Assembly: GCA_965219665.1 (NCBI GenBank)
Contig: CBDCOD010000019.1
Coordinates: 30,070-94,069, forward strand
Length of the DNA stretch: 64,000 nucleotides
Reading direction: 5' to 3'
Source: Gammaproteobacteria bacterium
Lineage (GTDB): Bacteria; Pseudomonadota; Gammaproteobacteria; CAKMZV01
The translations under genes were made by a program, and so were the position numbers. Shown piece by piece: positions 47,526 to 64,000 of this stretch. The number at the start of each line of letters is the position of its first letter. The first letter of the stretch is position 1. Under the pieces are notes generated by a model. It made no database searches. It saw only the letters and a program-made list of their open reading frames with translations, and had not been told where the DNA came from.

Positions 47526-48662
47526 TTAACCTGAGCAGGTCAACTGCACACTACTCTGTATGCTGTAACCCATATCTATCTTACAAATACGGTAATAACG
47601 CGCTATAGACTCCCCTAATATATCCGTTAAGCGCTTATTGATTTTTGACACCACTTCAGATATACGGGGGGATAATTCGTGCTGATCACCTTCACCTACC
47701 CCCCATGTCTTCTTTACATCCTGAAAACGCCCTGCACTAGTAAGTGGCCTTAATAATTTAAGGAACAACGCTGTATCAAAAGCAGTCCAACTGACCCGCT
47801 CATTCACCTCAGTCTTACATAACAACAACTGATAAAAAGCAGCCTGTAGTGGCGGTAACTCCAGTGTTGTACCACCATGCAACATAAAGGACGCTTTCCC
47901 CCTCTCCCAATGAATGCTGGGGGGGTGCTGCATTTGTCTTATATAGCTTTTAATTTCCCCAAAACGCGTAATACGCTGTAAAAACGCTTGCGATAAATTA
48001 TCACGCGCTGACAAAATCGGCAAACTAATCAGTGAAACACGCGCCTCTTTAGCATCTAACGCTTCACCGCTGGCTGTCACAACGGTCTCTTCTCTTGGAT
48101 AATAAAAATCAGAGCACTCATACTGCTTATCAACCAAAACATGCGACAACACATCCTGTGGACGCGCATAAATAGACATTAAATAGCCCAGATAAAAGCT
48201 CATCGTTTTGCGCCCCCCTGCAAGTGAGGCATGCAAAATGCTATCGGTATCAGCCGTAAATTTTTGCACTAAACTGGCAAGCAAATCAGCACATAACACA
48301 CTGTTCTCCACACTATTAACATCCTCAATAATACCATCTGTTGACATAATAGAATGAATCTTAAGCCAATCTTTAGGCATATCCTTTAGCCCAAAATCGG
48401 CACAAAATCGGCGCAAAACACCCCCTTGATCCAGCACACCCAATCGCTGCACACCCACCAGTGTGGTTACCACATGGATCTCAGTTGGTATAAAAGCAGG
48501 CTCTTGCTTAACTAAAGCATACAGTGTCTCCGTAATAACAGATGGACTAACACCTGCCACACACAATAAAATTTTCCGTTCAGTATTCATTTTTAGTACT
48601 GGTTTGCATTCGTATTTACAGCTGGTATTACAGCCCTTTTTATTATCCTGCATTATCGTCAT
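47526..48662 (-). CDS. CARF-domain protein (Csx1/Cas_NE0113-like), C-terminal domain unassigned
   Basis: ILLCVAGVSPSVITETLYAL is the hallmark CARF N-terminal motif, and ASLAGGRKTMSF is the second CARF motif. No obvious R-x4-6-H HEPN motif in the C-terminal ~150 aa. The true start may be the internal Met at 48590. Confidence 0.7.
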   Translation of the reverse strand: MTIMQDNKKGCNTSCKYECKPVLKMNTERKILLCVAGVSPSVITETLYALVKQEPAFIPTEIHVVTTLVGVQRLGVLDQGGVLRRFCADFGLKDMPKDWLKIHSIMSTDGIIEDVNSVENSVLCADLLASLVQKFTADTDSILHASLAGGRKTMSFYLGYLMSIYARPQDVLSHVLVDKQYECSDFYYPREETVVTASGEALDAKEARVSLISLPILSARDNLSQAFLQRITRFGEIKSYIRQMQHPPSIHWERGKASFMLHGGTTLELPPLQAAFYQLLLCKTEVNERVSWTAFDTALFLKLLRPLTSAGRFQDVKKTWGVGEGDQHELSPRISEVVSKINKRLTDILGESIARYYRICKIDMGYSIQSSVQLTCSG

Positions 48663-48896: not shown

Positions 48897-49682
48897 ATGT
48901 CACAGAAAACCATGTTGCAAAAATTTATACAAAAAAACCTTCACCTAAAAAGATATGCGGCACTCACTATGCTCGCTGGAGCTTTCTTGCTTTCTGGCTG
49001 TGCTGCCATAAAAACCGCAATTGAACACAGTGACTTGGAGGTGCAAACCAAAATGTCTAGCACCATCTTTTTAGAGATAAGTGATACGCTAGAAAAAACC
49101 ATATACGTTGACATCCGCAACACCAGTGACAAGCCCATCAATGTATCTCCAGCCATCCAAACGGCGCTTCAGAAAAAAGGCTACACAATCGTTACTAAAC
49201 CCAAAGATGCCTTTTACTTCTTACAGGGCAACATCTTATATGTCGGCGAAAAAAGCCCCTCTGCACTACAAGACCAAATGGCAGCAGGCTATGGTGCTAA
49301 TGGTGCAGGCGTTGCAACGGGAGCTGCAGTCGGAATTCTGGCGTCTAGATCTGGAAACCGTGGAGAAGCTGCTGTAGCAGGCGCGGTCGTTGGCGGCGCT
49401 ATTGAAGTCATCTCTGGCTCGCTGGTAGAAAACGTAACCTACTCCATGCTAACCGATATTCAAATATCAGAGCGCTCATCCGAAATAGTTGCTCAGACTC
49501 AAGAAAGCAATTTAAAGCAAGGCGAATCCTCCAGCGTGAAGCAAAGCAGTAGTAGGCAAACCAATCGCAAAAAGTACCAAACGCGCATTCTATCCAGTGC
49601 TAACCAAGTCAACTTAGACTGGGAGGCAGCAAGACCCGCTTTAGAAGAAGGCTTAGCAAAATCCATATCAGGTATTTTCTAA
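48897..49682 (+). CDS. traT: TraT complement-resistance / surface-exclusion outer-membrane lipoprotein homolog
   Basis: Lipobox LLSGC, then AIKTAIEHSDLEVQTKMSSTIFLE... and ...KYQTRILSSANQVNLDWEAARPALEEGLAKSISGIF. These parallel F-plasmid TraT nearly block for block ([24 protein letters not shown]... [37 protein letters not shown]). GGAG SD 7 nt upstream. Confidence 0.85.
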   Translation: MSQKTMLQKFIQKNLHLKRYAALTMLAGAFLLSGCAAIKTAIEHSDLEVQTKMSSTIFLEISDTLEKTIYVDIRNTSDKPINVSPAIQTALQKKGYTIVTKPKDAFYFLQGNILYVGEKSPSALQDQMAAGYGANGAGVATGAAVGILASRSGNRGEAAVAGAVVGGAIEVISGSLVENVTYSMLTDIQISERSSEIVAQTQESNLKQGESSSVKQSSSRQTNRKKYQTRILSSANQVNLDWEAARPALEEGLAKSISGIF

Positions 49683-49850: not shown

Positions 49851-50621
49851 ATGTCAGAAACACTATTTTTCATTATTTTTATTACACTCTGCATTGTCCT
49901 TGCAATAAAAACCAAAAGCCTGCCCTCAGCAGAGGAGCGGCACAAAATGCGCTTGCAGAAAAACCAGCAAAGACGATTAAGCCATGCTGGCAAAATCAGA
50001 AAAGCAAGAAGAAGCGGCTCAAGCCGTGGAGGAGGGTTAAACCATGTCGGGCTTGGCATGGCAGCGGGTGCAGCAGGATTGGCAGCATACAGCACCCTAT
50101 CCAACAGCGATGATGCTATCGCTTCATCAAACACCTCTACAGCCTTTGATGATAGTTCCTCAAACATCACCAGTTTTGACATAAACCCTGCAAATGGACT
50201 GCCCATGGTGGATGGAATAGGTAGCATAGATATTGGAGGCAATACCTATGGCACCGACTCCGATACCTTTGATGATAGTTCCTCAAACACCACCAGTTTT
50301 GACATAAACCCTGCAAGTGGACTGCCCATGGTGGATGGAATAGGTAGCATAGATATTGGAGGCAATACCTATGGCACCGACTCCGATACCTTTGATGATA
50401 GTTCCTCAAACACCACCAGTTTTGACATAAACCCTGCAAGTGGACTGCCCATGGTGGATGGAATAGGTAGCATAGATATTGGAGGCAATACCTATGGCAC
50501 CGACTCCGATACCTTTGATCATAGTTTCTCATCCTTTGATGACAGCTTTTCATCCTTCGATGACAGCTTTTCATCCTTCGATGACAGCTTTTCATCGTCC
50601 TCTTTTGACGATGATTGGTAA
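49851..50621 (+). CDS. membrane-anchored acidic repeat protein (3 x 41-aa repeats plus SFDDSFSS mini-repeats)
   Basis: N-terminal TM helix, then three near-identical 41-aa units (DDSSSNTTSFDINPASGLPMVDGIGSIDIGGNTYGTDSDTF) and a C-terminal (SFDDSFSS)x3. Confidence 0.55.
   Translation: MSETLFFIIFITLCIVLAIKTKSLPSAEERHKMRLQKNQQRRLSHAGKIRKARRSGSSRGGGLNHVGLGMAAGAAGLAAYSTLSNSDDAIASSNTSTAFDDSSSNITSFDINPANGLPMVDGIGSIDIGGNTYGTDSDTFDDSSSNTTSFDINPASGLPMVDGIGSIDIGGNTYGTDSDTFDDSSSNTTSFDINPASGLPMVDGIGSIDIGGNTYGTDSDTFDHSFSSFDDSFSSFDDSFSSFDDSFSSSSFDDDW
50145..50513 (+). repeat. 3 x 123-bp near-perfect tandem direct repeat (coding), followed by 3 x 24-bp mini-repeats
   Basis: TTTGATGATAGTTCC... recurs at 50145, 50268, 50391 and 50514, a period of 123 bp with 1-2 mismatches per unit. 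Confidence 0.9.
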
Positions 50622-50688: not shown

Positions 50689-50997
50689 ATGAATAATCAA
50701 ACTAAAACATCAACAGCGAACTCTACAACACAAGAAACAATAACCGTTCCCCCAAGCAACAATGCATTACCTGCAATTGGAGTAACCGGATTATGTACAG
50801 GGTTGACGCTCGGCATAATGATTATGATCATAGGGCTACAGAATTTCCAAGTCAGTTTACTTGCAGGCTTACCGAGCCTTTTATACGGCGCATTAATTTG
50901 TATCATAGCCATTGCATGGAATGCGCTCTTAAGTGGCTTTGCCACTATGGTTCAAGCGCAAGTGGACATCCGAAACGCCACTGTTTCAAAAAAATAA
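50689..50997 (+). CDS. small membrane protein (about 103 aa, two predicted TM helices)
   Basis: MNNQTKTS... then hydrophobic GVTGLCTGLTLGIMIMIIGL and LPSLLYGALICIIAIAW. The ORF track's longer frame (50479..) overlaps the upstream gene, so an internal start was chosen. Confidence 0.35.
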   Translation: MNNQTKTSTANSTTQETITVPPSNNALPAIGVTGLCTGLTLGIMIMIIGLQNFQVSLLAGLPSLLYGALICIIAIAWNALLSGFATMVQAQVDIRNATVSKK

Positions 50998-51074
50998 ATA
51001 GCACAAGCAAAAAAATTCCAAGTAGAAAAAAAAATAGGCTATCATATAAAAAAATAAATAAAATGTGCTCTACT

Positions 51075-51368
51075 ATGAAAACAATACTCACCACCAGACA
51101 CCCTGCCACTGTGCAATGGCTTGCCCGTCAAGGCATTGCAGCAGAACAGGTCGATCATGTATCGTCTGACAGCATTACCCACCCGGTAAAACTCATTGGC
51201 AATGTCCCTCCAGCCATTGCCGCACAAGTATGCCAGCAAGGTGGCGAGTATTGGCACATTGACCTTGATTTACCTCAAACCATACGCGGCAAAGAACTCA
51301 GCGTTTCAGACTTAGAACAATATAAGGCTAAAATAATCCGCTATCACATTGAACAAATCACCTCTTAA
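51075..51368 (+). CDS. small hypothetical protein immediately upstream of cmr1 (candidate CRISPR accessory, Csx16-like?)
   Basis: About 97 aa starting MKTILTTRHPATVQWLARQG. Positioned as the first gene of the cmr cluster after an A-rich promoter-like region (51000-51060). Family assignment not verifiable from sequence alone. Confidence 0.35.
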   Translation: MKTILTTRHPATVQWLARQGIAAEQVDHVSSDSITHPVKLIGNVPPAIAAQVCQQGGEYWHIDLDLPQTIRGKELSVSDLEQYKAKIIRYHIEQITS

Positions 51369-51382
51369 ACGGCACCAAAACT

Positions 51383-52510
51383 ATGGAATTTATCAATCCT
51401 TTTGCAAACAACACGCTAACGGCAACCTATCAAATCAACACCCCCATGTTTTTAGGCGGTGCCGATGGCTGTGCAGATACCATAACCCCCCAATCTTTTA
51501 AGGGGCTCATGCGCTTTTGGTGGCGCGCATGGCAGTGGCAACATGCCAAGGGCAGCGACGATTCAGAAAAACTGGCTGACCTACACCACAAAGAAGCCCT
51601 ACTCTTTGGCTCCAGCGCACCAAAACCAAACACAAAAGACAAAAAGGAACTCTACGGTCAAGGTGCCTTTACTCCATAATCATTCGCCACGAGGAGCTCG
51701 AAAAACTGACCAACTGAGAACACGCAGAGTAAATTCAAATACCTTGCCTACGGCAATGCAATCGTTCAAAAAAGCAAATCCCGAAAAGGATACATCAAGA
51801 ACGCACAAAAGAACATACGAATCAAAAAAATGCACTTTTAAGCAGTTCAAGCTTACTTTAATAGACACAAGTACAGTTGACAGCTGAAGCATCAAGGCTA
51901 TGATGACGTAACCATAGACGCAACAACTTGACAACGACTTACTTAGACCTAATTGGAACTGGTAGGTAGTCTGGGCAGTCGCAAATCACGCAAAGGTTTC
52001 GGCAGTTCTATTCAGAAATAAGATGATTTTCTCTCACCCGCAGGTAATATCAAGAAAAAGTACTAAATGCACTTCTCAATGCCTACAACCAGATATGACA
52101 TGCGCGCTCCGTATCACTGCATTTTCCAAACTAATAAAATACGTAGCTGGCAGGCAGTGACAAAAAAAAACGACTCAACTGCATTGCTCCGCTTCCTGAC
52201 AAGGTCATTACCTGAAAGAGCTAGAACAAATGAGTGGTGCCTTTCCTCAGGCAACCGCCAAAAAGAAGGCATGAAAAATAAACGTCAACTGCTTGGTCTT
52301 AACGATTAAAGACATTAACGATAAACGATCGTCATAGCGCGCCCGTCTTTTTCCACATTCCATCAACAACAGTTCAAGACCCAAATATACGTTACTTCTT
52401 ATGCCATCAAACATGTACTTCACCCAGCACCTGCGCTCTTTGAGAAAACAACCATAGATGAAAAGAAGGGGCTGGCTGCCGTCAAGAACTATGTAAACAA
52501 TATAGCTCAA
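51383..52510 (+). pseudogene. cmr1: cmr1 remnant (type III-B RAMP Cmr1), disrupted by multiple stops and frameshifts
   Basis: The first 98 codons (51383-51679) carry the Cmr1 RAMP motif ITPQSFKGLMRFWWRAWQ, then terminate. The remaining ~830 bp before cmr2 carries only short ORFs in several frames (51543-51887, 52067-52309). Stops at 51677, 51707 and 51843 lie in the original frame. Confidence 0.6.
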
Positions 52511-52528
52511 ACCACGCAAAATTAAAAC

Positions 52529-54493
52529 ATGACAAAAAAATACTTTCACCTCACCATCGGCCCCGTGCAAGGGTTTATAGCCAGCGCGCGCCGTACCCGC
52601 GATTTATGGGCAGGATCCTTCATCCTCTCCACGCTATCTGCCGTTGCCATGCGCTCCGCTATCGCTCAAGAGAGCACAACAATCATTTTCCCCGCTGCTG
52701 ATAAGGGCTCTCTGCAATGGTTGGAACCCTCTAATACCCAACCTGAACGATTCCCTAACTACCCCAACCGCTTTATGGCAGAAGTGCCAGCAGACTTTAA
52801 CCCCCAAGCCGTAGTTACAGACATCAACGCAGCGTGGCAATCAATCGCCAATGCAGTCTGGACAGCAGACTTTCAAAACGCCAACGCAGAAACCAAAGCA
52901 ATCTGGGATAGACAAGTTGCACATTACTGGGAAATAAGTTGGGTGCTGACAGATGACCGAAAAGACACCAGTGCCTTAGATCGGCGCAAAAACTGGCGCA
53001 GCCACATCCCCCCTGCAGAACCCGGTAATAAATGTATGCTCATGGACAGCTTACAAGAGCTCTCCGGCAGCCTACAGGCAAGCACTATAGAACGACAAAC
53101 ATTCTGGAAAAAACAAGCACAAGTAAGCAAGAGATTAGATATAAGCGCCAAAGAACATTTAAGTGCCATTGCCTACATCAAACGCCGCCTAATCATTGCT
53201 CTTAAAGAAGGTATCCAGGCAGAATTAACAGGATGGCAATTAAACCTCAAAATAAATCCAAGTGATGCCAACGAAGACGACATTCGCTCTCAAGCACCCT
53301 CCACCGCTCACATTGCCGCCGTCGATTGGCTAAAAGCCATTAAAAACAAAATGCAAGATGATCAAACAGCCGAAGAAAAAATCAAAACCAACATCCGTAG
53401 ATTGATCGAATCCATTGAAGGCATACCCCAAACCAATCATTTACTCAAAAGCGAAAGCAATTCGACTCTCATTAAAGACAACAGAAAAAATTCTAACTTT
53501 AATAATCTTAGTTACTGTGAAGCCAGTCTGTTTTATCCACACCTTATCAATTCCCGCTTAGACTTGGAACTCACACCCGACAACGAGCGAAAGCTGCTCG
53601 ACAACCTCAACGCACTATGCGAGCGCGTAGACAAAAAGCCCACTGCCTTTTATGCAATACTGTGCATGGATGGCGACAGCTTTGGGCAATTCCTGAGCAA
53701 CTCACAAAACCACGCCAAAATCAGCAAAGGGCTAAATGCATTCACTAAAGAAGTGCCGAAAATAGTAAAACAACATACAGGCTTCACCCTCTATGCCGGC
53801 GGTGAAGATGTGCTTGCCATGCTCCCCATTAGCCAAGCCATTGCTTGCGCCCATAAGCTGCAACAAGAATTTACTGCAATTTTTCAAAGTAAGCTGAATA
53901 AGGGCGGAGAGAACGTACTGCCCACCATCAGCGCCGGCATCGTCTTTAGCCACCTCAAAATGCCGCTGATGCAAAGCATAAGCCGCGCCCATGAGGTCTT
54001 AGACGACATTGCCAAAGAACAAACCGGGCGTAATGCCATCGCCTGTGAAATCAACAAACCCTCTGGTCGTACCGCACAATGGGCAATGCCTTGGGACAAG
54101 GCAGCCGATGACGATGATAACAGCGCTATGATGATTAGCACTATTAGCGAGACATTAAAAGAGAAAAATCAAGCCGATGCCTCTTTTTCTACCAAATTCC
54201 TCTATCACTTTCGCAATAGTTATCACTTATTCAAAGATAAGAACAGCCATGAGGCAATAAGCAAAGATCTGCTCACTGCCTTAGTGATCAGCAACCTACA
54301 ACAAAGCAAAGGGCGCGCTGCTGAACTCAGCGCAGCAGAACAAAAACTTGCCAAACAAATCATCGATCAATCCTGGATTTATAAATCAGATAGCAAAGGG
54401 CAGCCCATACAAAGCGACCAAATAAGTGATGCCTTCGTAATGCTCGCCCGCTTCTTAGCCACTGATGGCATAGACGGAGGGAACCGCACATGA
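52529..54493 (+). CDS. cmr2: Cmr2/Cas10 lacking the HD nuclease domain, with a cyclase palm domain carrying GGED
   Basis: N-terminus LTIGPVQGFIASARRTRDLWAGSFILSTLS is the conserved Cmr2 D1 block. Palm motifs ILCMDGDSFGQF (about 53666-53690) and YAGGEDVLAML (GGED at 53801-53812). 654 aa, consistent with Cmr2 minus the ~215-aa HD domain. Confidence 0.85.
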   Translation: MTKKYFHLTIGPVQGFIASARRTRDLWAGSFILSTLSAVAMRSAIAQESTTIIFPAADKGSLQWLEPSNTQPERFPNYPNRFMAEVPADFNPQAVVTDINAAWQSIANAVWTADFQNANAETKAIWDRQVAHYWEISWVLTDDRKDTSALDRRKNWRSHIPPAEPGNKCMLMDSLQELSGSLQASTIERQTFWKKQAQVSKRLDISAKEHLSAIAYIKRRLIIALKEGIQAELTGWQLNLKINPSDANEDDIRSQAPSTAHIAAVDWLKAIKNKMQDDQTAEEKIKTNIRRLIESIEGIPQTNHLLKSESNSTLIKDNRKNSNFNNLSYCEASLFYPHLINSRLDLELTPDNERKLLDNLNALCERVDKKPTAFYAILCMDGDSFGQFLSNSQNHAKISKGLNAFTKEVPKIVKQHTGFTLYAGGEDVLAMLPISQAIACAHKLQQEFTAIFQSKLNKGGENVLPTISAGIVFSHLKMPLMQSISRAHEVLDDIAKEQTGRNAIACEINKPSGRTAQWAMPWDKAADDDDNSAMMISTISETLKEKNQADASFSTKFLYHFRNSYHLFKDKNSHEAISKDLLTALVISNLQQSKGRAAELSAAEQKLAKQIIDQSWIYKSDSKGQPIQSDQISDAFVMLARFLATDGIDGGNRT

Positions 54494-55572
54494 ACAACAC
54501 CATGCAAACCACCCACATCACCCTCACCCCCAACGACAGCCTGTTCTTTCGTGAATCCCGCCCTATGGAATCAGTCGGCGGCGCTATCCTAGAAAGCCAG
54601 TTTCCACCCAACCCCCAAACCCTTATTGGCGCCCTAAAAGGCTATGTTGGCGAGCAATATGGTGTGGACTTTAAAACCGTTCGCGAAAACACTAAAAAGG
54701 GCAAGCCCTATACAAAAGAGGGCTTCACCATGGACTTTGGTGACAGCAACGCAGACCTCTCCATAACCGATATGGCACTACGCCATCAAGACACGGGCAT
54801 AGGCACAGACTACTACCCTGCCCCTCTCTTTGTGGCTTACAGCGAAACCGATAAGCAATATGCTCTCATTCAACCCAGTGCGCAATCAACTGAATGCGAT
54901 TTAGGCAACGTACACTTACCCACCCTCCCTAAAGAGAAGACGGGCTATAAACCCTTAGAAAACGCTTGGCTGAGTAGTAAAGACTACACCAATGTCCTTC
55001 AAGGCAAACTGCCCACGAGCCACCTTAAAAAAAGCGCCATCCTTAAGGATGAGTTTCATCTTGGCATCAGCATTGACAAAGAGAGCAACACCGCAGAAGA
55101 CCACAAACTCTATCAAAGCATGCACACCCGCCTCAAGCAAGGCATGCAGCTGCATCTCACGCTCCGACACCGTAAAGACATACAAATCAACAACGGAACC
55201 ATCCGCTTAGGCGCAGAAGGAAGAAGTGCCCAACTCACAATCATCGAATCGCCCGAAAGCATCACCTCCACCCCTAAAAATAACAAAATAAGCCTAATCT
55301 TAACCACCCCCGCACTGTTCAAAAACACAGACGCACTGCATGAAGCAATAGCGCAATACGGCACCCTGATCAGCGCCTGCTTAGGCAAAACCACCCGAAT
55401 GGGCGGCTGGAATTTAGCCCAAAATCAACCACGAGAAGCCATCTCAGCCATTCCCGCTGGCAGCACGTGGTTCGTTGAGGCAAGCCCTAACGCATGCCCC
55501 CCTGCCGCCATTGGCGAGCAAACAACTAAAGGCTTTGGCATCGTCCGTTGCGGCACCTGGCAGCACCTATAA
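54490..55572 (+). CDS. cmr3: Cmr3
   Basis: N-terminus LTPNDSLFFRESRPM...SQFPPNPQTLIGALKG is typical of Cmr3. C-terminal G-rich loop TTKGFGIVRCG. ATGA overlap with cmr2. Confidence 0.8.
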   Translation: MNNTMQTTHITLTPNDSLFFRESRPMESVGGAILESQFPPNPQTLIGALKGYVGEQYGVDFKTVRENTKKGKPYTKEGFTMDFGDSNADLSITDMALRHQDTGIGTDYYPAPLFVAYSETDKQYALIQPSAQSTECDLGNVHLPTLPKEKTGYKPLENAWLSSKDYTNVLQGKLPTSHLKKSAILKDEFHLGISIDKESNTAEDHKLYQSMHTRLKQGMQLHLTLRHRKDIQINNGTIRLGAEGRSAQLTIIESPESITSTPKNNKISLILTTPALFKNTDALHEAIAQYGTLISACLGKTTRMGGWNLAQNQPREAISAIPAGSTWFVEASPNACPPAAIGEQTTKGFGIVRCGTWQHL

Positions 55573-55597
55573 ACACCCCAAAATTGAGGAATATAAT

Positions 55598-56443
55598 ATG
55601 AAAAACACCATACTTGGACTACACGCACAAACCGCCATCCACGCAGGATCAGGGCAATCATTGGATGTCATCGACCTCCCCATTCAGCGCGAAGCCCACT
55701 CAGGCTACCCCGTTATCTTTGGTTCATCGCTCAAAGGCGCCCTGCGCGCCCATGCTGACCACAACAACGCTGAACACCTCAGCACCATCTACGGTTCAGA
55801 AAATGCGGAACACGCCAGCGCCATCCGCATCAGCGATGCCAAGCTCATCGCCCTGCCGGTGCGCTCACTCACCACCCACTTTCGCCTTGTAACCTGCCCA
55901 CACCTCTTAGAACGCCTCAACCGCGACCTCGCCCAAATTGGCAAGAATACATTAGAAATACCCAGCGTTAAAAATGAAACTGAGATTCGCACCGCTGATC
56001 AAAAAGATCAAACAAACCTATTCTTAGAGGAGTACCGCTACACCGTACGCACCTGTGGGAAACTACCGCACTGGCAACAACAAATAGCGGAACTCACCGG
56101 ACAAAACAGCGAACAGTTAGCAAACCTATCCGTCATCTCCAATGACCAGTTTGCTCACATCTGCCAAACCGCCACTGCCATTGCCCCACACATTGCCATT
56201 GACAATAAAAACAAAACCGTCAAAGGCGGCGCACTCTGGTTTGAAGAAACCCTACCCCCCGAAACGCTCCTCTACAGCCTCATCAGCGCGGTTGATGCTC
56301 GACATAAAGACACAACATTAAAAGCGACTGAAGTGCTTAACGCATTCAAGCAGCCTCTAACAGAAAGCTATCTCCAAGTCGGCGGCAACGAAACCGTGGG
56401 CATGGGTTGGTGCAAGGCGACGGTAACTGGAGGTGCACAATGA
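55598..56443 (+). CDS. cmr4: Cmr4 (backbone RAMP, target-RNA cleaving subunit)
   Basis: MKNTILGLHAQTAIHAGSGQSLDVIDLPIQRE...IFGSSLKGALRAHA are the RAMP G-rich and catalytic-loop motifs. The start was chosen at the ATG at 55598, which has a GAGGA SD; the ORF track begins at 55475. Confidence 0.9.
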   Translation: MKNTILGLHAQTAIHAGSGQSLDVIDLPIQREAHSGYPVIFGSSLKGALRAHADHNNAEHLSTIYGSENAEHASAIRISDAKLIALPVRSLTTHFRLVTCPHLLERLNRDLAQIGKNTLEIPSVKNETEIRTADQKDQTNLFLEEYRYTVRTCGKLPHWQQQIAELTGQNSEQLANLSVISNDQFAHICQTATAIAPHIAIDNKNKTVKGGALWFEETLPPETLLYSLISAVDARHKDTTLKATEVLNAFKQPLTESYLQVGGNETVGMGWCKATVTGGAQ

Positions 56444-56838
56444 GTAATACGATTACACCCCAAACCATTGAGCAACAGCGCGCAGCGTTTGCATACCAAT
56501 TAGTCACAGCTCATAAAAAGAACGATCGACTCAAAGCCTACGCCCGTAACCTACCAGGCATGATACTCACCAACGGCTTTGGGCAAGCCATGGCGTTTTG
56601 CCTATCTAAAAGCGGCAAGAATAACAGCAATGAAGAACAAGCCTATACAGCCCTGCAACAAGGCATCTTTGAATGGCTTGGGGCTGAACCGCAAAAACTG
56701 CTTAATGGTGGCTCAGACATCGTTGCCGCCATTACTGAACTTGACCAACACCGATATCAACTCGCCACTGCCGAAGCCCTTGCTCTATGCAAATGGATCA
56801 AGCAACTCGCCACCGCTCTCATTGAAGATACAGACTAA
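56440..56838 (+). CDS. cmr5: Cmr5 (small alpha-helical subunit)
   Basis: About 132-aa helical protein between cmr4 and cmr6. ATGA overlap with the cmr4 stop. Confidence 0.7.
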   Translation: MSNTITPQTIEQQRAAFAYQLVTAHKKNDRLKAYARNLPGMILTNGFGQAMAFCLSKSGKNNSNEEQAYTALQQGIFEWLGAEPQKLLNGGSDIVAAITELDQHRYQLATAEALALCKWIKQLATALIEDTD

Positions 56839-56867
56839 AAACACCGACTAACCCAACTTCTAAGAAA

Positions 56868-58126
56868 ATGCCCATGTCAAACCCATCAATGTTGCCACTA
56901 CACAAATCTTGTAAAGACGCAGCCAAGCAATTAGATTCACACCTTGGTCTCTCAGGTTCACACCTTGGTCTCTACTTTGATAAATACTTCTCCTACTCCC
57001 GCTCTCCAAATAATAACATTGAAGCCGCACCTGAAAACAAAAAAGAATTTCTAAAAAAATTCAACAAAGCTAACATCCCACCATCGCTTGAAAATGCCAA
57101 CATCAATCAAGTACGACTCATCCAAAAATTAAACGGCACATTCAAAGCCTTCAAAACCACCTCCTCCTTTGTAACCGGCATGGGGCAAGATCACCCCTTA
57201 GAAAATGGCTTTGCTTTTCACCCCACCTACGGCACCCCCTACCTCCCCGGCAGCAGTGTCAAAGGCATGCTGCGCCACTTCTTTACCCACCACTACCAAT
57301 GGGGAAATGAAGATAAAGCAACATTCCTCAACCAAGTATTCGGCAGCGATAATCCCAAGCAACCCGCCATAGGAAACTACCTGTTTTTTGATGCCCTCCC
57401 TACCGAGACCGTCACAATGCACACCGAAATCATGACCCCGCACTACGGCGATTGGTACGCAAAAGGAGGCGACAAAACAGAAAATACAAAAAACGACACA
57501 TCATCCCAGGCGATTGGCACGAACCAATCCCTATCCAATTCCTTGCTGTCAAAAACGCCACCTTCCTCTTTGCCATCGCCCCGCGCAATGGCACAACCGA
57601 GCAGCCTGACTACCTCTCCTTTCTCTTTAAAGGACTCGACTGCATCCTCATGCACCTTGGCGCTGGTGCCAAAACTGCCACCGGCTTCGGTTATATGGCT
57701 TTTAATGAAGAACAAACTGAAAAATCAGAAGAAAATGCGCTAACCCCCGAAGAAAAGAAAGAGCGCGAGCGAAAAATTGAAGAGCAGAAGCAAAAAGAGA
57801 TTAAAGAGAATGCATGGAAAGAAACTAAAGCAAAAGAACAGGCAGAAGCAGCAAAGCGAGCAGCATTTGACAGCACCCTATCTACAACAGATAAATGGTT
57901 TTTAGAGAAAAACTATGCAGAATGCTCTCCAGATGGCGATGCCCTGGTTTTCAAAATAACCAAGCCCAACAAGGCACTCAAAGACCCTGACTTATCCTCA
58001 AATTTTGAGTTAAAGAAGGCGGTCATTGAAGTCATACAGGTGCATAAAGAAAAACCCTATTCCCACACCTTCTGGGACAAAACAATACGCAAAAAGGTCA
58101 ACGATTCACTCAAAAAAATGAAATAA
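56868..58126 (+). pseudogene. cmr6: cmr6 with an internal frameshift (two overlapping reading frames, 56868-57743 and 57452-58126); it carries an unusual ~170-aa charged C-terminal extension
   Basis: Frame A has the RAMP block YGTPYLPGSSVKGMLRHFF. Frame B has the C-terminal G-rich loop HLGAGAKTATGFGYMAF. The frames switch between 57447 and 57517, where a 9-bp direct repeat GGCGATTGG flanks a 62-bp segment. Confidence 0.75.
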
Positions 58127-58191
58127 TCCTGAACACATAAAAGCAATACGCCATAATGCTTATGCTCAATGCACACAGCTATTAACCAACT

Positions 58192-59127
58192 ATGAACTTA
58201 GAACTTATGCAACTAATAGAACAATTCGGCTTTAGCCTCTTCGTCTTCGCTTTAATCACCCTTCTGCTCATCTACCTCCTGATGGGCATAAAAATCGTAC
58301 CGCAAGCACAGCAATGGGTTATTGAGCGATTAGGCTCCTACAATCGCACCTTAGACGGTGGGCTCAACTACATCATACCCATCGTTGACTCTACACGCGC
58401 CAAATACCAAACACAAGAACAAGTCATTGACATTCCCTCGCAGCGCGTTATCACCCGTGATAACGTTTCCATCTCTATTGATGGACTCGTATTCATCCGC
58501 ATCACCAACGCCAAACAAGCCATCTATGGCGTATTAGACATGCGACACGCCATCTCACAATTGGCACAAACCACGCTCCGCTCCGAAATTGGCAAAATGG
58601 ACTTAGACGACTCCCTCTCCTCACGCGACCACCTTAACGCCGCACTCCTCACCGCATTAGATAATGCTGCAGGTGGCTGGGGTGTCAAAGTAACGCGTGT
58701 AGAAATATCTGACATTGACGTACCCAGCGAAGTCAAAACAGCCATGGAACTGCAACTGCGCGCCGAGCGCGAACGCCGCGCCACTGTTACCAAAGCCGAA
58801 GGCGATAAAAACGCCGCCATTGCTCAAGCCGAAGGCGAGCGGCAACGTGCCTTTAAAGAAGCTGAAGCTATTGAGCGCACGGCAGACGCTAAACAATATG
58901 AGCAAATTCAACTTGCCGAAGGACAAAAGCAAGCGATGGAACTCATCAACCTGGCAATGGAAAACAACCCCCAAGCTGCCGATTTTTTACTTGCAAAAGA
59001 CCGCATCAAAGCCTTCAATGACCTTGCCAAAAACACCAGTCAAGACAAAGTTATCGTACCGTACGAAGCCAGTGCCCTCGTTGGCGCACTCTCAATTATC
59101 ACTGAGAACCTTACTAATAAAAAATGA
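58192..59127 (+). CDS. SPFH/band-7 (stomatin/paraslipin-like) membrane protein
   Basis: N-terminal TM helix, then KIVPQAQQWVIERLGSYNRTLDGGLNYIIP, the canonical SPFH start. C-terminal Ala/Glu-rich coiled coil. 311 aa. Confidence 0.85.
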   Translation: MNLELMQLIEQFGFSLFVFALITLLLIYLLMGIKIVPQAQQWVIERLGSYNRTLDGGLNYIIPIVDSTRAKYQTQEQVIDIPSQRVITRDNVSISIDGLVFIRITNAKQAIYGVLDMRHAISQLAQTTLRSEIGKMDLDDSLSSRDHLNAALLTALDNAAGGWGVKVTRVEISDIDVPSEVKTAMELQLRAERERRATVTKAEGDKNAAIAQAEGERQRAFKEAEAIERTADAKQYEQIQLAEGQKQAMELINLAMENNPQAADFLLAKDRIKAFNDLAKNTSQDKVIVPYEASALVGALSIITENLTNKK

Positions 59128-59555
59128 CCACTCTACTCATCCCAGCTATACCCGCGTGGTATCTCATCATCATCGGCATAGCCATTGTTGGTGTTGAACT
59201 GTTTTTCATGAACCTATTCGTCATACTCTGGTTTGGACTGGCAGCCATATTCATTGGTGCCCTCAACTTATTTTTACCCTTTTCTCACGGCGAATATCAA
59301 CTACTACTCATTGCACTAATCGGCAGCACTGCCCTGTTCATGTATCATAAAAAATACAAACCATCACGCACCAAAAATAAACACTTAGACTCCTATACTA
59401 CAGGTGGAACAGGTAGCGTAATCACCACTAATCAAGGCATTAAAATCAATTATCAGGGAACGCTCTGGAGCATTGCCCCACCAGCCCCCACCAACCTAAA
59501 AGACGGCGACAACGTCATCATCAAAGAAATCAAGTCCAATCAAGTCGTTTTATGA
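59124..59555 (+). CDS. NfeD-like short-form membrane protein (partner of SPFH proteins)
   Basis: Three hydrophobic helices, then a C-terminal OB-fold-like region (GTGSVITTNQGIKINYQGTLWSIAP...GDNVIIKEI), as in YuaF/YbbJ. ATGA overlap with the SPFH gene. Confidence 0.7.
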   Translation: MTTLLIPAIPAWYLIIIGIAIVGVELFFMNLFVILWFGLAAIFIGALNLFLPFSHGEYQLLLIALIGSTALFMYHKKYKPSRTKNKHLDSYTTGGTGSVITTNQGIKINYQGTLWSIAPPAPTNLKDGDNVIIKEIKSNQVVL

Positions 59556-60589
59556 TTCTCATATCACTGATTGGACCACAAATTCTCCCCAATATTTTTG
59601 CGCTCCGACACTACGGCAATGAAATCAGCAAGCACTTCATACTCTGCGATAAAAACCCTAAAAATCTGGCAGCTGCCCAATTGCTTAAAGATTTTTGTGA
59701 ACCAAGCGGCATGCCAACCATCGTCATAACAGCCAACCTCAAACAAGCCCACAGTTGCTACAACGTTTGCTGCCAAATCATTGAAGACAACCGTGCCGTG
59801 CAAACCATTCTCAATGCCACCTGTTCGCTCAAAACTGCCGCTCTTGGTGCTTTCATGGCAATGCAACAGCACAATCAGCGCACCATCTATGTTGACGGGC
59901 AAAGAATCCAACGCGTCCACCACTCAGAGGATCACAACACCATCGCCCCTATTAAAGCCCGCATCAGTATTGCAGACTACCTACAAGCATACGGCTTTAG
60001 CATCACACCCTCTACCCAAGACCACACCATAGGGGAAAAATTTGGCAACTACCTCTTCGACGACAACTTGCTCAGAATATGGATGAGGGATAGTAAATAC
60101 ACCCCCCACGAACGGATTGCAAAATGGCTCAGAAGCAACAACATACTCGCAGGCAACCGCACGATAAAACCTGAAAAACGGGCATGGTATTCTGGCACCT
60201 GGTTTGAGCAATGGGTCTATGTCACACTGAAAAAACACTTTGCAAAAAATCCTGCTGTATCCGACATTTGTAGCAGCTTTAAGGTGAAAAAACATGCAGA
60301 AAATGAAATAGACGTTGCCTTTGTTCATAATAACATCCTGCACCTGATTGAATGCAAAGCAGGAAAGCCCGAAAAACAAAGCCAAGAAGGCCTGCGCTTC
60401 TCCAGCGTTGCTGAAACCATTGGTGGCACCTACACCAAATGCGCCGTACTATTTTTGCGCCCAACAAAAGACACCATAAAAGAACGCGCCAGCGACACCA
60501 CCAACTTACACTACATTGACAACATTGAAAACACAACCGACTTATGCACCAAAGTAGATCAATGGCTTGAAAAATCAAATTTCTCATGA
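59552..60589 (+). CDS. CARF + PD-(D/E)xK nuclease (Can2/Card1-like cOA-activated nuclease)
   Basis: N-terminus MILISLIGPQILPNIFAL is the CARF strand-1 motif. The C-terminus has E...IDVAFVHNNILHLIECKAGK at 60311-60360, i.e. D...E-C-K. 345 aa. ATGA overlaps on both sides. Confidence 0.7.
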   Translation: MILISLIGPQILPNIFALRHYGNEISKHFILCDKNPKNLAAAQLLKDFCEPSGMPTIVITANLKQAHSCYNVCCQIIEDNRAVQTILNATCSLKTAALGAFMAMQQHNQRTIYVDGQRIQRVHHSEDHNTIAPIKARISIADYLQAYGFSITPSTQDHTIGEKFGNYLFDDNLLRIWMRDSKYTPHERIAKWLRSNNILAGNRTIKPEKRAWYSGTWFEQWVYVTLKKHFAKNPAVSDICSSFKVKKHAENEIDVAFVHNNILHLIECKAGKPEKQSQEGLRFSSVAETIGGTYTKCAVLFLRPTKDTIKERASDTTNLHYIDNIENTTDLCTKVDQWLEKSNFS

Positions 60590-61452
60590 ACCCCAAAAAC
60601 AACCCGGCACAAAACTTTAAGCTAAAAAATGCACTCACTAGCACCTTTGGCAGTCTGGACCTAACAACCATAGGAATCGCCATACTCCTATTAGCACTTA
60701 TTGGCTGGAGCGCAGACAGCCTACTCAACACCCTCACCTTTAGCATAGCTTCCCCCTTAACGCACCTTAGCATAGCAGCACTATCACTCGCTGCCTTATC
60801 CCTTCTTATAAAAATACTGCATAAAAAAGCACAAGGCATAGGCAACAACCTCCTCATTGAAGCCACCCAAAACAAACCCAAACGCTTAGATGCCCAAAAC
60901 CTTATTTTTATCGTATCGCCTGCAAGGCACTTTGCCGATATAGATAAAAAACTACAATGCCCAGATACACAAAAAAACCTACAAGAATTGATAGAAGAAG
61001 AATCCACAGAAACGAAACCGACTACACAACCCAAAAAAAAATACCAATGGTATATGCCCTATAGCACCATCAAAGAACATCAGCCCAAAAACATCTATCC
61101 CATCTTTACTTCAGGCGAATATGGCAGCAGTAAACAAAAAGAGACTTTCTTAAATCTCTTTAGAGGCATATTCCCCGACAAAACCATTCATGATGCAGAT
61201 TATCAAACCCTACAATCCACCGATTTGACTGAGCTATCCAAAGCCTACGACAAGATAGAACAAAAAGTTCTCAACGACGACAAATACCGCCCCAACCAAA
61301 TTCTCGTTGATGTAACAGGCGGTCAAGCCTCCATGAGCGCCATGCTCGCTGTCAACTCCACCATTGATGATGCCATCATCAGCTACGTGGACACCAATGA
61401 CTATAAAATTCACTACTTTGACTTTCGCAGCCACAACCCATCAGAAGAATGA
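60586..61452 (+). CDS. two-TM membrane protein with a C-terminal CARF domain (Cam1-like membrane effector)
   Basis: Hydrophobic helices at about aa 27-48 and 58-80. The C-terminal ~180 aa has the CARF-like motifs LIFIVSPA and ILVDVTGGQASMSAM at 61301-61340 (D-x-T-G-G-x-x-x-M). 288 aa. Confidence 0.55.
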   Translation: MNPKNNPAQNFKLKNALTSTFGSLDLTTIGIAILLLALIGWSADSLLNTLTFSIASPLTHLSIAALSLAALSLLIKILHKKAQGIGNNLLIEATQNKPKRLDAQNLIFIVSPARHFADIDKKLQCPDTQKNLQELIEEESTETKPTTQPKKKYQWYMPYSTIKEHQPKNIYPIFTSGEYGSSKQKETFLNLFRGIFPDKTIHDADYQTLQSTDLTELSKAYDKIEQKVLNDDKYRPNQILVDVTGGQASMSAMLAVNSTIDDAIISYVDTNDYKIHYFDFRSHNPSEE

Positions 61453-62297
61453 ATGCCTTCCTCCCGCTATTCAAAATCCAAATAACCCTTACAGCCCTAT
61501 CCTCTATTACATTTCGCACTCCCCATCACAACATCATTTTAGATGCCTTCCTACGCTCACTCCTCAGCCAAGAGCAAAAAAAACAATACGCCACCACGCT
61601 TATCATCAGCCCCCAAACACCAATCCAAGCCATCACATACGGCAACGCCTACACCTTTAACATCACAGCCATTAACAATGCCCTTCTGCTTAGCCGGCTA
61701 CTATTCCAACTCAAATCCTTACCATTCTCTGCCCGTATTCGAGACACAACAGCCCCGCTACGCCACAACCTCAAATTCCACCAAGCCACCTGTATGCACA
61801 CAGGTCATAAAGCCAACAGCATTAAAGACCTCACCCCAATCCAAGCCATAGACCTTGAAAACAGAGCATTAGAACTCGCCTCGCATAGCCAGCTCCCCAT
61901 AACCCTAAACTTAGCACGCCTCAAAAAAAGCCACCTTAAAAAAACCAGCAACACCGAACAAAACTTCGCCCAAAACAGCACCGAACTAACCGCTGAACTC
62001 CTATTAGAGCGCATCAACACCACCATAAGCCACCTACACCGTGCGCTCAACATAAATGCCACACCGCAGCCCCCTCTTCCTACAGCCACCACAACAACGC
62101 AATACTGCAAATGGATAAACCTACCCTACTTTGACAAAAACAAGCAGGAAAAAACATGCGGCGGACTCAACGCACAACTCACGCTAAGACCGCAAAACTG
62201 GTCATTGGACCACTACCGCCAACTGGCACTGATTGAACACGTAGGCATTGGACAACGCCGCACATCTGGTTTTGGCACGCTCACCATCAACGCATGA
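61449..62297 (+). CDS. cas6: Cas6-like RAMP endoribonuclease (standalone)
   Basis: C-terminal glycine-rich loop HVGIGQRRTSGFGTL (G-h-G-x5-G-h-G) typical of Cas6. 282 aa. ATGA overlaps with its neighbours. Confidence 0.55.
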   Translation: MNAFLPLFKIQITLTALSSITFRTPHHNIILDAFLRSLLSQEQKKQYATTLIISPQTPIQAITYGNAYTFNITAINNALLLSRLLFQLKSLPFSARIRDTTAPLRHNLKFHQATCMHTGHKANSIKDLTPIQAIDLENRALELASHSQLPITLNLARLKKSHLKKTSNTEQNFAQNSTELTAELLLERINTTISHLHRALNINATPQPPLPTATTTTQYCKWINLPYFDKNKQEKTCGGLNAQLTLRPQNWSLDHYRQLALIEHVGIGQRRTSGFGTLTINA

Positions 62298-64000
62298 AAA
62301 TTCCCCTACCGAAACTACCTTCCCAGCAAGCCCTCAGCGTTGACCTCCAGTTTATACAGCCCCAAAATCTTCCACTCTACCATGAACCTGTTATTCAAAA
62401 TGCACTCAAGGCACTCACCCGCCAACTGCTCCCCTCAAACACCTCCACCCCTTTTACCCTCATCTGCCCCGAAAGCGCCCGCACCCACTATCCTGCAAAC
62501 ACCTCCTACTACTTTTGCATAATCAGCCTCAGCATAGACTCCATACAACCCCTCTGGCAGCAACTCATCATCAAACTGCGCCAACTCCCGATAGAATCAA
62601 CGCCCTTTATCAAAAACTGCACCCTCATATCGCTACGAAACCTCTTAGACGGCACGCCCGTATCCAATGCCCAATCCTTAACCCAATACACCTTTGACTT
62701 AGCACTATCGCAAGCAACAGACTGGCGCAACACACAAACCACAACCCTTAATTGGCGCTGGATTAGCCCTGCCCATACCCCTATCGGCAACACCTTATGC
62801 CGCGATAAAACCGAGCTATCTGCCAAACACCTCTGTGAACAAATCGCACACAGCCTATACGATCTCATCCAGCACAATAACAGCACCGAAACAAACCACT
62901 TATTTCATCTATGGACTCAATCCCAGTACAAGCATATAGCAATACATAAAGCCGATCTATATTGGATAGACACCCCTTATCACCCAAATCAAACCAATTT
63001 CTCTGGCATATCAGGTAACTTTACATTTAGCCTGTCTGAAGAGGCCCCCACCAAATTATTAGCCCTCATCATCTACGCTCAGAATATTGGCATTGGCCTT
63101 AATTACCAAAAAGGATTTGGCAAATACCGCCTCTCAAGCCCAAACGATACGTACTTCTCCACACTATCCAACCACTGCATGCCCATCACGCGCTGTGAAT
63201 CATTGCTCAAGCACTTTACGCACCCCCAAATGATTGAACGCGCCATTGCAGAATTAGAGCAAAAACCCAACATCGACAAGCTCAGCGACAAAACCCATGC
63301 CCAAATACAATCTGCCATTGGTCAAGTTCGCAAACAAGATTACACCCCTCCTAATTTATTTGGGTTCACCACGCCTAAAAAAGACGGCACCGACCGCCTA
63401 CTCGCTGTCGCTCCCCTATATGATCGCATCCTACAAAAAGCCTGTGCCATCGCACTCACACCCACCTTAGAAGCTATCATGAGCCAAGCCTCCTTCGGCT
63501 ACCGCAAAGGACTATCACGCCAGCAAGTCCGCTATGCTATTCAGCAATACTACAGGCAAGGCTACAAGTGGGTCTTGGAATCCGACATTGATGATTTCTT
63601 TGACTCCATTAACCGCACGCTACTCATCAATCGCCTTGCCAGTTTTTTTGGCCCTGACCCACTATGGAACCTCATGGAACAATGGCTCAACAGACCCATA
63701 ATCTATCAAGGGCACACTATCCAACGTCCCGATGGCATACCACAAGGCTCACCTCTCAGCCCACTACTAGCAAACTTTATTCTGGACGACTTTGACTCTG
63801 ACCTTGAAGCCTATGGTTTCAAACTCATTCGCTTTGCTGACGACTTTGTTATTCTCTGCCGCTCTAAATCTGAAGCCATAGAAGCACGCAGTGCCGTAAC
63901 GAAACATCTCAAAGAAATCAATCTCAAACTCAATCCAGAAAAAACCCACATTAGCGAAATAGACCACGGGTTCCGCTTTTTAGGTTACCTTTTCCACGAA
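62294..64000 (+). CDS. Cas6-reverse transcriptase fusion (N-terminal part of a Cas6-RT-Cas1 protein), truncated by the window end
   Basis: Manual translation finds no stop from the ATG at 62294 to 64000. The N-terminal ~330 aa end in a second Cas6 G-rich loop, NIGIGLNYQKGFGKYRL. After that come RT motifs: RLLAVAPLYDRILQ, QGSPLSPLLANFIL and the catalytic box FADDFVIL. Absent from the ORF track because it is edge-truncated. Confidence 0.8.
   Translation, partial: MKIPLPKLPSQQALSVDLQFIQPQNLPLYHEPVIQNALKALTRQLLPSNTSTPFTLICPESARTHYPANTSYYFCIISLSIDSIQPLWQQLIIKLRQLPIESTPFIKNCTLISLRNLLDGTPVSNAQSLTQYTFDLALSQATDWRNTQTTTLNWRWISPAHTPIGNTLCRDKTELSAKHLCEQIAHSLYDLIQHNNSTETNHLFHLWTQSQYKHIAIHKADLYWIDTPYHPNQTNFSGISGNFTFSLSEEAPTKLLALIIYAQNIGIGLNYQKGFGKYRLSSPNDTYFSTLSNHCMPITRCESLLKHFTHPQMIERAIAELEQKPNIDKLSDKTHAQIQSAIGQVRKQDYTPPNLFGFTTPKKDGTDRLLAVAPLYDRILQKACAIALTPTLEAIMSQASFGYRKGLSRQQVRYAIQQYYRQGYKWVLESDIDDFFDSINRTLLINRLASFFGPDPLWNLMEQWLNRPIIYQGHTIQRPDGIPQGSPLSPLLANFILDDFDSDLEAYGFKLIRFADDFVILCRSKSEAIEARSAVTKHLKEINLKLNPEKTHISEIDHGFRFLGYLFHE

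Follow-up and report, generated by a model that had tools for sequence, protein, structure and literature searches.

The solved structures of Cmr6, which come from P. furiosus (4W8V and 3X1L), A. fulgidus (9L7C) and the S. islandicus Cmr-beta complex (6S6B), share a RAMP core with motifs of the form PHYGxWY and PGDWxxPxPIxFL and a G-rich loop, GxGAKTxxGxG, and their chains end 3-10 residues past this loop. The Cmr6/Cmr1 end of the Cmr complex holds the 3′ end of the crRNA.

The cmr6 gene described here lies in a window of 64 kb, the whole stretch of DNA that was analysed, and its product resembles the solved proteins in its RAMP core, in both motifs and in the G-rich loop. In contrast to them, its reading frame is broken, and its product carries a C-terminal extension of 144 aa that is absent from every solved Cmr6. 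The break is most probably a real loss-of-function mutation, an ordinary small indel in a loop of a gene whose Cmr module is already in decay, with an estimated probability of roughly 0.65. The tail is the sole modestly novel element of what is otherwise an ordinary damaged gene.

Identity and reading frames of the split cmr6

The window's cmr6 has no uninterrupted reading frame. As the first-pass annotation had proposed, the gene is split into two overlapping frames, ORF A (56868-57743, 291 aa) and ORF B (57452-58126, 224 aa), and the frame changes between 57500 and 57503, a position that lies, again as proposed, between two G-D-W codon triplets. The coordinates of the gene, its internal features and its neighbours are collected in Table 1.

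Table 1. Features of the cmr6 gene and of the surrounding Cmr module, in window coordinates.
Feature	Coordinates	Strand	Remarks
csx16-like gene	50793-51368		
cmr1 pseudogene	51383-52520 (3′ end approximate)	+	In the operon of cmr6
cas10/cmr2	52529-54493	+	Intact; Pfam Cmr2_N and Cas10 palm2
cmr3	54490-55572	+	Intact; Pfam Cas_Cmr3
cmr4	55595-56443	+	Intact; Pfam RAMPs
cmr5	56437-56838	+	Intact; Pfam Cas_Cmr5; upstream of cmr6
cmr6	56868-58126	+	Last gene of cmr1-cas10-cmr3-cmr4-cmr5-cmr6
cmr6, native frame-A part	56868-57500	+	Frame-A ORF continues out of frame to 57743
Cmr6 motif 1, MTPHYGDWYAKGG	57432-57470	+	Contains 9-mer copy 1 (57447-57455)
Variable loop between the motifs	57471-57505	+	Allele-specific patch, diverges from L001 and L003
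A6 run; heptamer A_AAA_AAC	57488-57493; 57488-57494	+	Heptamer in register with frame A
Likely frame-error site, within CACATCATCC	57499-57504	+	2 nt more than in the P0123 allele, 4 nt fewer than in L001/L003
cmr6, native frame-B part	57503-58126	+	Mechanical frame-B ORF from TTG at 57452
Cmr6 motif 2, PGDWHEPIPIQFL	57506-57544	+	Contains 9-mer copy 2 (57509-57517)
G-rich loop, GAGAKTATGFG	57659-57691	+	Canonical Cmr6 RAMP domain ends here
K/E-rich part of the extension	57704-57868	+	Predicted single long alpha-helix
Small C-terminal domain of the extension	57869-58123	+	About 85 aa
SPFH gene	58192-59127		
NfeD-like gene	59124-59555		
Card1 gene	59552-60589		
Membrane protein gene	60586-61452		Faint CARF match
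cas6-like gene	61449-62297		

The gene is a type III-B cmr6 of a bacterial Cmr6 subfamily, and profile matches and gene order both bear out this identity, which had been assigned from the sequence at the outset. In particular, ORF A matches positions 3-132 of the TIGR01898 Cmr6 profile with 72 bits and ORF B matches positions 126-194 with 41.7 bits; a reconstruction of the protein that retains the loop between the motifs reaches 111.7 bits on this NCBIfam model, above its cutoff of 51.1, and is aligned to 4W8V by phmmer with E = 2e-22. Both TIGR01898 and the Pfam RAMPs profile stop at the G-rich loop, where G263, K265, T266, G269 and G271 are invariant across 100 homologues, as the pattern GxGxKTxxGxG describes. 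The fold was assessed on the AF2 model of P0122, an intact relative from the P0002 cluster that is about 88% identical and served as a stand-in; the model has the RAMP fold, and its best Foldseek matches are Cmr6 chains (6s6b_I, 9l7c_I and 4w8v_A, with E values from 3e-9 to 1e-8). Further, the Pfam matches of the neighbouring genes place cmr6 after cmr5, and the same order is found in the loci L001, L003, L004, L006 and L008.

Public sequences already contain the divided gene. ORF A is 100% identical to a 291-aa protein (P0003), while ORF B is identical or nearly identical to the C-terminal parts of P0002, P0121, P0122 and P0123; the deposited assembly holds the gene as P0003 (291 aa) and P0124 (143 aa) on a contig of 95,730 nt. 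Independent translation of ORF B was considered and rejected, as the AAGGAGG string at 57463-57469 has no frame-B start codon at a useful distance, and no credible start or ribosome binding site was found for a separate ORF B product. Searches beyond these proteins yielded little: representative-genome contigs, in a set that excludes the source species, returned one spurious low-complexity match from a Bacteroidota MAG when scanned with the reconstructed Cmr6, and exact patterns of the allele-specific loop and of its conserved flank each had 0 matches in JGI metagenome contigs.

The repeated G-D-W codons and the site of the frame change

Two copies of GGCGATTGG, separated by 62 nt from start to start, read as G-D-W in frame A and in frame B, respectively, and deletion of 57447-57508 does produce a single ORF of 398 aa; the first-pass annotation was accurate on both counts. 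It had gone on to suggest that a 62-bp insertion or duplication between 9-bp direct repeats had broken a gene that originally read ...TPHY-GDWHEPIPIQ..., an explanation that now retains practically no probability. The restoration of a single ORF, which speaks in its favour, is arithmetic only, and the insertion is refuted because homologue alignments show the segment between the repeats to be native Cmr6 sequence. In these alignments, named beforehand as the refuting test, the first motif (MTPHxGxWY) has invariant M184, T185, H187, W191 and Y192 and nearly invariant P186, G189 and G195, and the second (PxDWHxPxP) has invariant P210, D212, H214 and P216 and nearly invariant W213 and P218, across 100 homologues. 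The segment that would have to be removed includes W191, Y192 and G195 together with the loop that follows, and in most of the 115 homologues in which both motifs could be located, 17-26 aa separate them.

The structures and the closest relatives argue in the same direction. Both motifs are present in solved Cmr6, the first as PHYGPYY or PHYGDYY and the second as PGDWYDPIPIFFL or PGDWHSPNPIFFL, so that P. furiosus and others read PHYGPYYQSG...PGDWYDPIPIFFL, and the segment between them is found in every solved Cmr6 that was matched. Moreover, the intact genes of L001 and L003 do not carry a single repeat copy; each has both copies of GGCGATTGG, in frame and 66 nt apart. The deletion product also scores 12 bits lower on TIGR01898 than the reconstruction that keeps the loop (99.3 versus 111.7 bits).

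Direct repeats of this kind are common in the window, where 53-56 pairs of at least 9 bp occur at spacings of 10-100 bp, compared to about 26 in Markov-1 simulations. The motif 1 triplet is GDW or GKW in 80 of the 115 homologues and the motif 2 triplet is ADW or GDW in all 115; under the genome's codon usage, the chance that two G-D-W sites use identical codons is about 0.15. Judged by these counts, the occurrence of the repeat is no more than chance and protein conservation predict. Both G-D-W motifs happen to read GGC-GAT-TGG, and the resulting 9-bp 'direct repeat' is unconnected with the frameshift. More generally, a protein motif that occurs twice can leave in the DNA what looks like a direct repeat around an insert.

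The frame error itself can be placed by comparing alleles of the loop between the motifs. This loop is the divergent part of the gene: its 100-column block is 83-84% identical to L001 and L003, compared to 99-100% in the adjacent blocks, with a net deficit of 4 nt in the window, and the corresponding region of the P0122 model is unstructured (pLDDT about 59). The window's loop allele is shared by P0123, a cluster mate encoded on a different ENA contig of 51,959 nt, which reads ...GGDKTENTKNDTIPGDWHEPIPIQ..., that is, ...KTENTKNDT|IPGDW.... P0123 equals the window's frame A through K-N-D-T, whose last codon is ACA at 57498-57500, and equals its frame B from I-P-G-D-W, whose first codon is ATC at 57503-57505; it therefore joins the two frames in such a way that the window has 2 nt in excess within CACATCATCC. 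The spacing between the G-D-W sites is 62 nt in the window, 66 nt in L001 and L003, and 60 nt in the P0123 allele, the last value, as well as the exact indel and its direction, being derived from the protein sequence of P0123 only. An excess of 2 nt is equivalent to the loss of 1 nt from a hypothetical 63-nt form that reads D-T-I-I-P.

The frame error would most likely fall at about 57499-57504, in CACATCATCC and beyond the A6 run, as far as these allele comparisons indicate. According to the proposed mechanism, a small indel in the variable loop between two conserved Cmr6 motifs (MTPHYGDWYAKGG and PGDWHxPxPIxFL) would break the cmr6 frame. Closely related alleles can thus place a frame error within a few bases even where no reads are at hand.

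Origin of the frame change

The A6 run upstream of this site had been offered as the place of a 1-nt sequencing error. The run exists, although it occupies 57488-57493 rather than 57487-57494, the AAAAAAC heptamer extending to 57494. If an A7 tract had been read as A6, the corrected gene would read ...TKKRHIIPGDW..., in frame and with a spacing of 63 nt; homopolymers are the commonest site of error in long-read data, and L001 contains one such error. The indel is not located in the homopolymer, however, as the comparison with P0123 puts it in CACATCATCC, 3′ of the run: the same allele reads AAA-AAC-GAC-ACN as K-N-D-T, which leaves the run and the two codons after it in the native frame. The window also has no other homopolymer indel over 8 kb of comparison with its relatives, and a miscall in the run is accordingly disfavoured, with only a very slim chance of being correct.

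The same run could in principle serve a programmed or tolerated -1 ribosomal frameshift, or transcriptional slippage, that would yield a full-length Cmr6 reading ...TKN-RHIIPGDW.... The heptamer A_AAA_AAC is a canonical X_XXY_YYZ sequence in the right register for frame A, the shift needed is -1, the product's motif spacing of 21 aa is inside the range of the family, and a Shine-Dalgarno-like AAGGAGG lies 18 nt upstream of the heptamer. In these respects, namely a heptamer in register and an SD-like string before it, the window resembles frameshifting of the dnaX type, which uses A_AAA_AAG, an upstream SD and a downstream hairpin. It differs from dnaX in other respects. The heptamer is abundant by chance, occurring 44 times in the window; no stimulatory structure is evident, as the fold of 57495-57580 has a free energy of -13 kcal/mol that is not significant (z = -1.38, with 15 of 200 shuffles folding as well); and the SD-like string merely encodes a conserved K-G-G, is present in intact relatives, and is farther from the heptamer than in dnaX, where the distance between the SD and the slippery site is roughly 10 nt. 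Efficient transcriptional slippage needs a run longer than six A residues. The arrangement is also not conserved: intact relatives have no A-run here, P0001, P0002, P0121, P0122 and the distant homologues are single ORFs, and none of 124 homologues or cluster members is split, apart from the gene's own fragments P0003 and P0124 and the 5′-truncated P0123. P0123 itself reads straight through the loop, with frame A native beyond the heptamer. Recoding is very unlikely.

The alternative that deserves more weight, while still unlikely, is an assembly or sequencing artefact in which the true gene is in frame and the consensus contains either an error of 1-2 nt or a chimera of the 60-nt and 66-nt loop alleles. 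No other 35 nt of the gene vary as much as those that contain the error, and it is in such patches that metagenome assemblers are most error-prone; related ENA assemblies contain several strains that differ in their loop allele; and the window's loop agrees with the P0123 allele on its 5′ side and, in CATCATCCCA, with the 3′ side of the L003 loop. Errors of this class are found in assemblies of the population, as shown by the 1-nt homopolymer gap near the 3′ end of L001, a contig with 3x coverage. Against an artefact, the site is not homopolymeric, sequencing errors rarely amount to 2 nt, the difference from the closest allele, and the window is otherwise clean. In particular, L001 and L003, both from ENA metagenome assemblies, are 97.5-98% identical to the window over the cmr3-cas6 block and have intact cmr6 genes of 417 and 411 aa, respectively; a three-way alignment across 54300-62338 contains indels of 24, 6, 3, 6, 21, 3 and 3 nt, and the only two whose lengths are not multiples of three are the window's 4-nt gap in the cmr6 loop and the gap in L001. 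The large ORFs between 1 and 50 kb of the window are long, closely packed and apparently intact, and the window's GcvP is 100% identical to that of a relative, while its best match with an organism name is 63% identical (Rhizobiales).

A genuine cmr6 mutation is considered most likely because cmr1 of the same operon is a heavily decayed pseudogene. Its codons 1-97 are nearly identical to the L003 allele, with 2 amino-acid differences; past codon 97 the frame switches several times and meets at least 6 in-frame stops, and alignment to L001 and L003, where the intact gene encodes 351-354 aa, requires 59-66 gap openings. This decay far exceeds sequencing error, and a real loss of cmr6 next to it would therefore be unsurprising. 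The start of P0123 is an internal Met (MHTEIM), which suggests a second, independent disruption of cmr6 farther upstream in a sister strain. The locus as a whole is a mosaic of alleles, a pattern that points to recombination and not to simple clonal decay. Because cmr1 is dead, the module should be flagged as probably non-functional; if decay is occurring, it is recent or partial, as cas10, cmr3-5, card1 and the cas6-like gene are intact. In an annotation, a single cmr6 pseudogene should replace the two fragments, or they should carry a warning of a possible assembly error.

The C-terminal extension and comparison with known systems

The tail that follows the G-rich loop, which had been put at about 170 aa, is 144 aa long, and it consists of a K/E-rich stretch and a small terminal domain. 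The description of the tail as K/E-rich and coiled-coil-like holds in part: the enrichment is confined to the first 55 or so residues, where 34 of 57 are E, K, R or Q and 5 are large hydrophobics, and this stretch probably looks more like a single alpha-helix than like a coiled coil. The AF2 model of P0122 predicts a single helix over residues 290-348, with a pLDDT above 90 over its first 30 or so residues, and the fold alignments of this model to Cmr6 chains cover the core only, at most about 270 columns. The terminal domain has no match to a known fold. It is found in a handful of sequences, which form 4 clusters at 50% identity, and it is duplicated in P0006 and P0076.

Whether such a tail is atypical depends on the reference. 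Compared to the archaeal and solved Cmr6, which lack it, the first-pass annotation was right to call it so; within the clade the label does not apply: past the G-rich loop, 114 of the 120 best homologues continue for 75-150 aa, and the median tail over the 120 is 113 aa. The extension is an inherited trait of the clade and is unrelated to the frameshift. Genes for extension-bearing Cmr6 are located in standard cmr operons with varied accessory genes, including RT-Cas1, SAVED, Card1 and Csx16. A link between the extension and the adjacent SPFH and NfeD genes was rejected because L004, L006 and L008 have the extension and lack those neighbours. A literature search on Cmr6 extensions, on SPFH/NfeD in type III loci and on cmr pseudogenes found nothing relevant.

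It is tentatively proposed, with some doubt, that the helix of about 55 K/E-rich residues and the terminal domain could form a tether that extends from the Cmr6/Cmr1 end and recruits or positions a partner. If this were true, many bacterial type III-B effectors would have an architectural element that is present in no solved structure, and the window's terminal domain would be a rare variant of the arm with a novel fold. Regardless of its role, a helical C-terminal arm of about 110-145 aa characterises a large bacterial clade of Cmr6, and none of the solved Cmr complexes has it.

The closest described counterparts of the window's protein are the Cmr6 proteins with extended tails from Gammaproteobacteria and relatives, for example those annotated as Cmr6 in Pasteurella skyensis, Methylomonas sp. 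DH-1, and Thiotrichaceae and Methylococcales MAGs. They belong to the same subfamily, with cores that are 33-45% identical to that of the window and the same operon layout, and all have a charged helical linker and a small terminal domain, 75-150 aa past the G-rich loop; most of them (67 of 116) share one tail family that differs from that of the window's Cmr6. At the level of the locus, the window resembles decaying CRISPR-Cas loci: a small indel interrupts one effector subunit, the neighbouring cmr1 is degraded, and no CRISPR array was found in the 64-kb window, nor in L001 or L003. It departs from such loci in that most of the module is intact and nearly identical to functional-looking relatives, with a cas10/cmr2-cmr5 block that is syntenic with L001 and L003.

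Mosaic divergence and the decay of cmr1

The type III-B (Cmr) module contains short patches that are 70-85% identical to relatives inside surroundings that are 99-100% identical, with frequent indels of 3n nucleotides inside the patches (see the table). Such a mosaic suggests either recombination shuffling alleles or diversifying loops in this population. The cmr1 pseudogene shows a sharp transition. Its codons 1-97 are nearly identical to those of L003, a closely related metagenomic locus, with 2 amino-acid differences; identity to relatives then drops abruptly from about position 51676, beyond which the sequence contains 6 or more stops and numerous short indels. Despite this decay, the flanks of cmr1 are 99-100% identical to relatives. 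Because the boundary of identity loss is sharp, these data suggest that recombination brought together a fresh cmr1 5′ end and a 3′ part that was old and dead.

Features of the module and its upstream neighbours (window coordinates)
Feature	Position	Strand	Remarks
Cas_NE0113 / Csm6-type CARF ring-nuclease gene	47526-48662	-	upstream of module
traT-like gene	48897-49682		adjoins Cas_NE0113 / Csm6-type gene
Tandem-repeat ORF	49851-50621		built of 123-nt and 21-nt repeats
cmr1	51383-52520		heavily decayed pseudogene
cas10	52529-54493		cyclase motif from residue 424 onwards
Divergent patch, cas10	53207-53579
Divergent patch, cmr5	56373-56570
cmr6 duplication	56937-56977		N-terminal, 21-nt, in-frame tandem; SHLGLSG-SHLGL
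Divergent patches, cmr6	57297-57326; 57471-57505
SPFH/Band-7 gene and 143-aa gene in NfeD position	58192-59555		between cmr6 and card1, inside module
288-aa protein gene	60586-61452

Length variation in cmr6 and the repeat ORF

The cmr6 duplication includes a 17-bp repeat, TTCACACCTTGGTCTCT, at 56936 and 56957. The extra copy is present in the window and in L001, the second near-identical locus, and missing from L003 and from two Cmr6 proteins of close relatives (P0002 and P0122). It is a genuine duplication polymorphism, in contrast to the two identical Gly-Asp-Trp codon triplets that the first-pass annotation had read as a direct repeat in the same gene. Further, L001, a contig of 3x coverage, carries a 1-nt deletion in an A-run at its positions 11180-11190 (window 58050), altering the last ~25 residues of its Cmr6 (P0001) as compared to P0002, P0121, P0122 and the window; this deletion is probably a sequencing error of that assembly. 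The upstream tandem-repeat ORF also differs in copy number among the window, L001 and L003, and its protein consists of repeated ...DSSSNTTSFDINPASGLPMVDGIGSIDIGGNTYGTDSDTF... units, followed by SFDDSFS repeats.

Accessory genes and effectors

The locus has at least two cOA-responsive effectors, the Cas_NE0113 / Csm6-type protein and Card1. The 288-aa protein may be a membrane-bound CARF effector: its N-terminal half is hydrophobic and apparently membrane-spanning, and its sole family match is a faint one to the CRISPR-associated CARF family TIGR02710 (27.8 bits, under cutoff). The SPFH gene and its NfeD-position partner, so labelled from position alone and matching no Pfam or NCBIfam family, are kept together in L001 and L003 and absent from more distant Cmr loci; a search of the accessible literature found no mention of SPFH/NfeD together with type III CRISPR.

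Cas10 and the source of guides

No CRISPR array was found within the 64-kb window or beside the module in L001 and L003, and neither cas1 nor cas2 accompanies the module in window 1-64000, L001 or L003. Without a local array, the module would depend on one elsewhere in the genome. Cas10 has no HD motif in residues 1-120. In L001, cas10 contains a long 9-nt microsatellite, repeated AGAACGACA, that encodes (KND)n and accounts for a protein length of 736 aa versus 652-654 aa. At the cyclase motif, the window, L001, L003 and the more distant locus L004 have GGED in place of GGDD; two other distant Cmr loci, L006 and L008, have GGDD.
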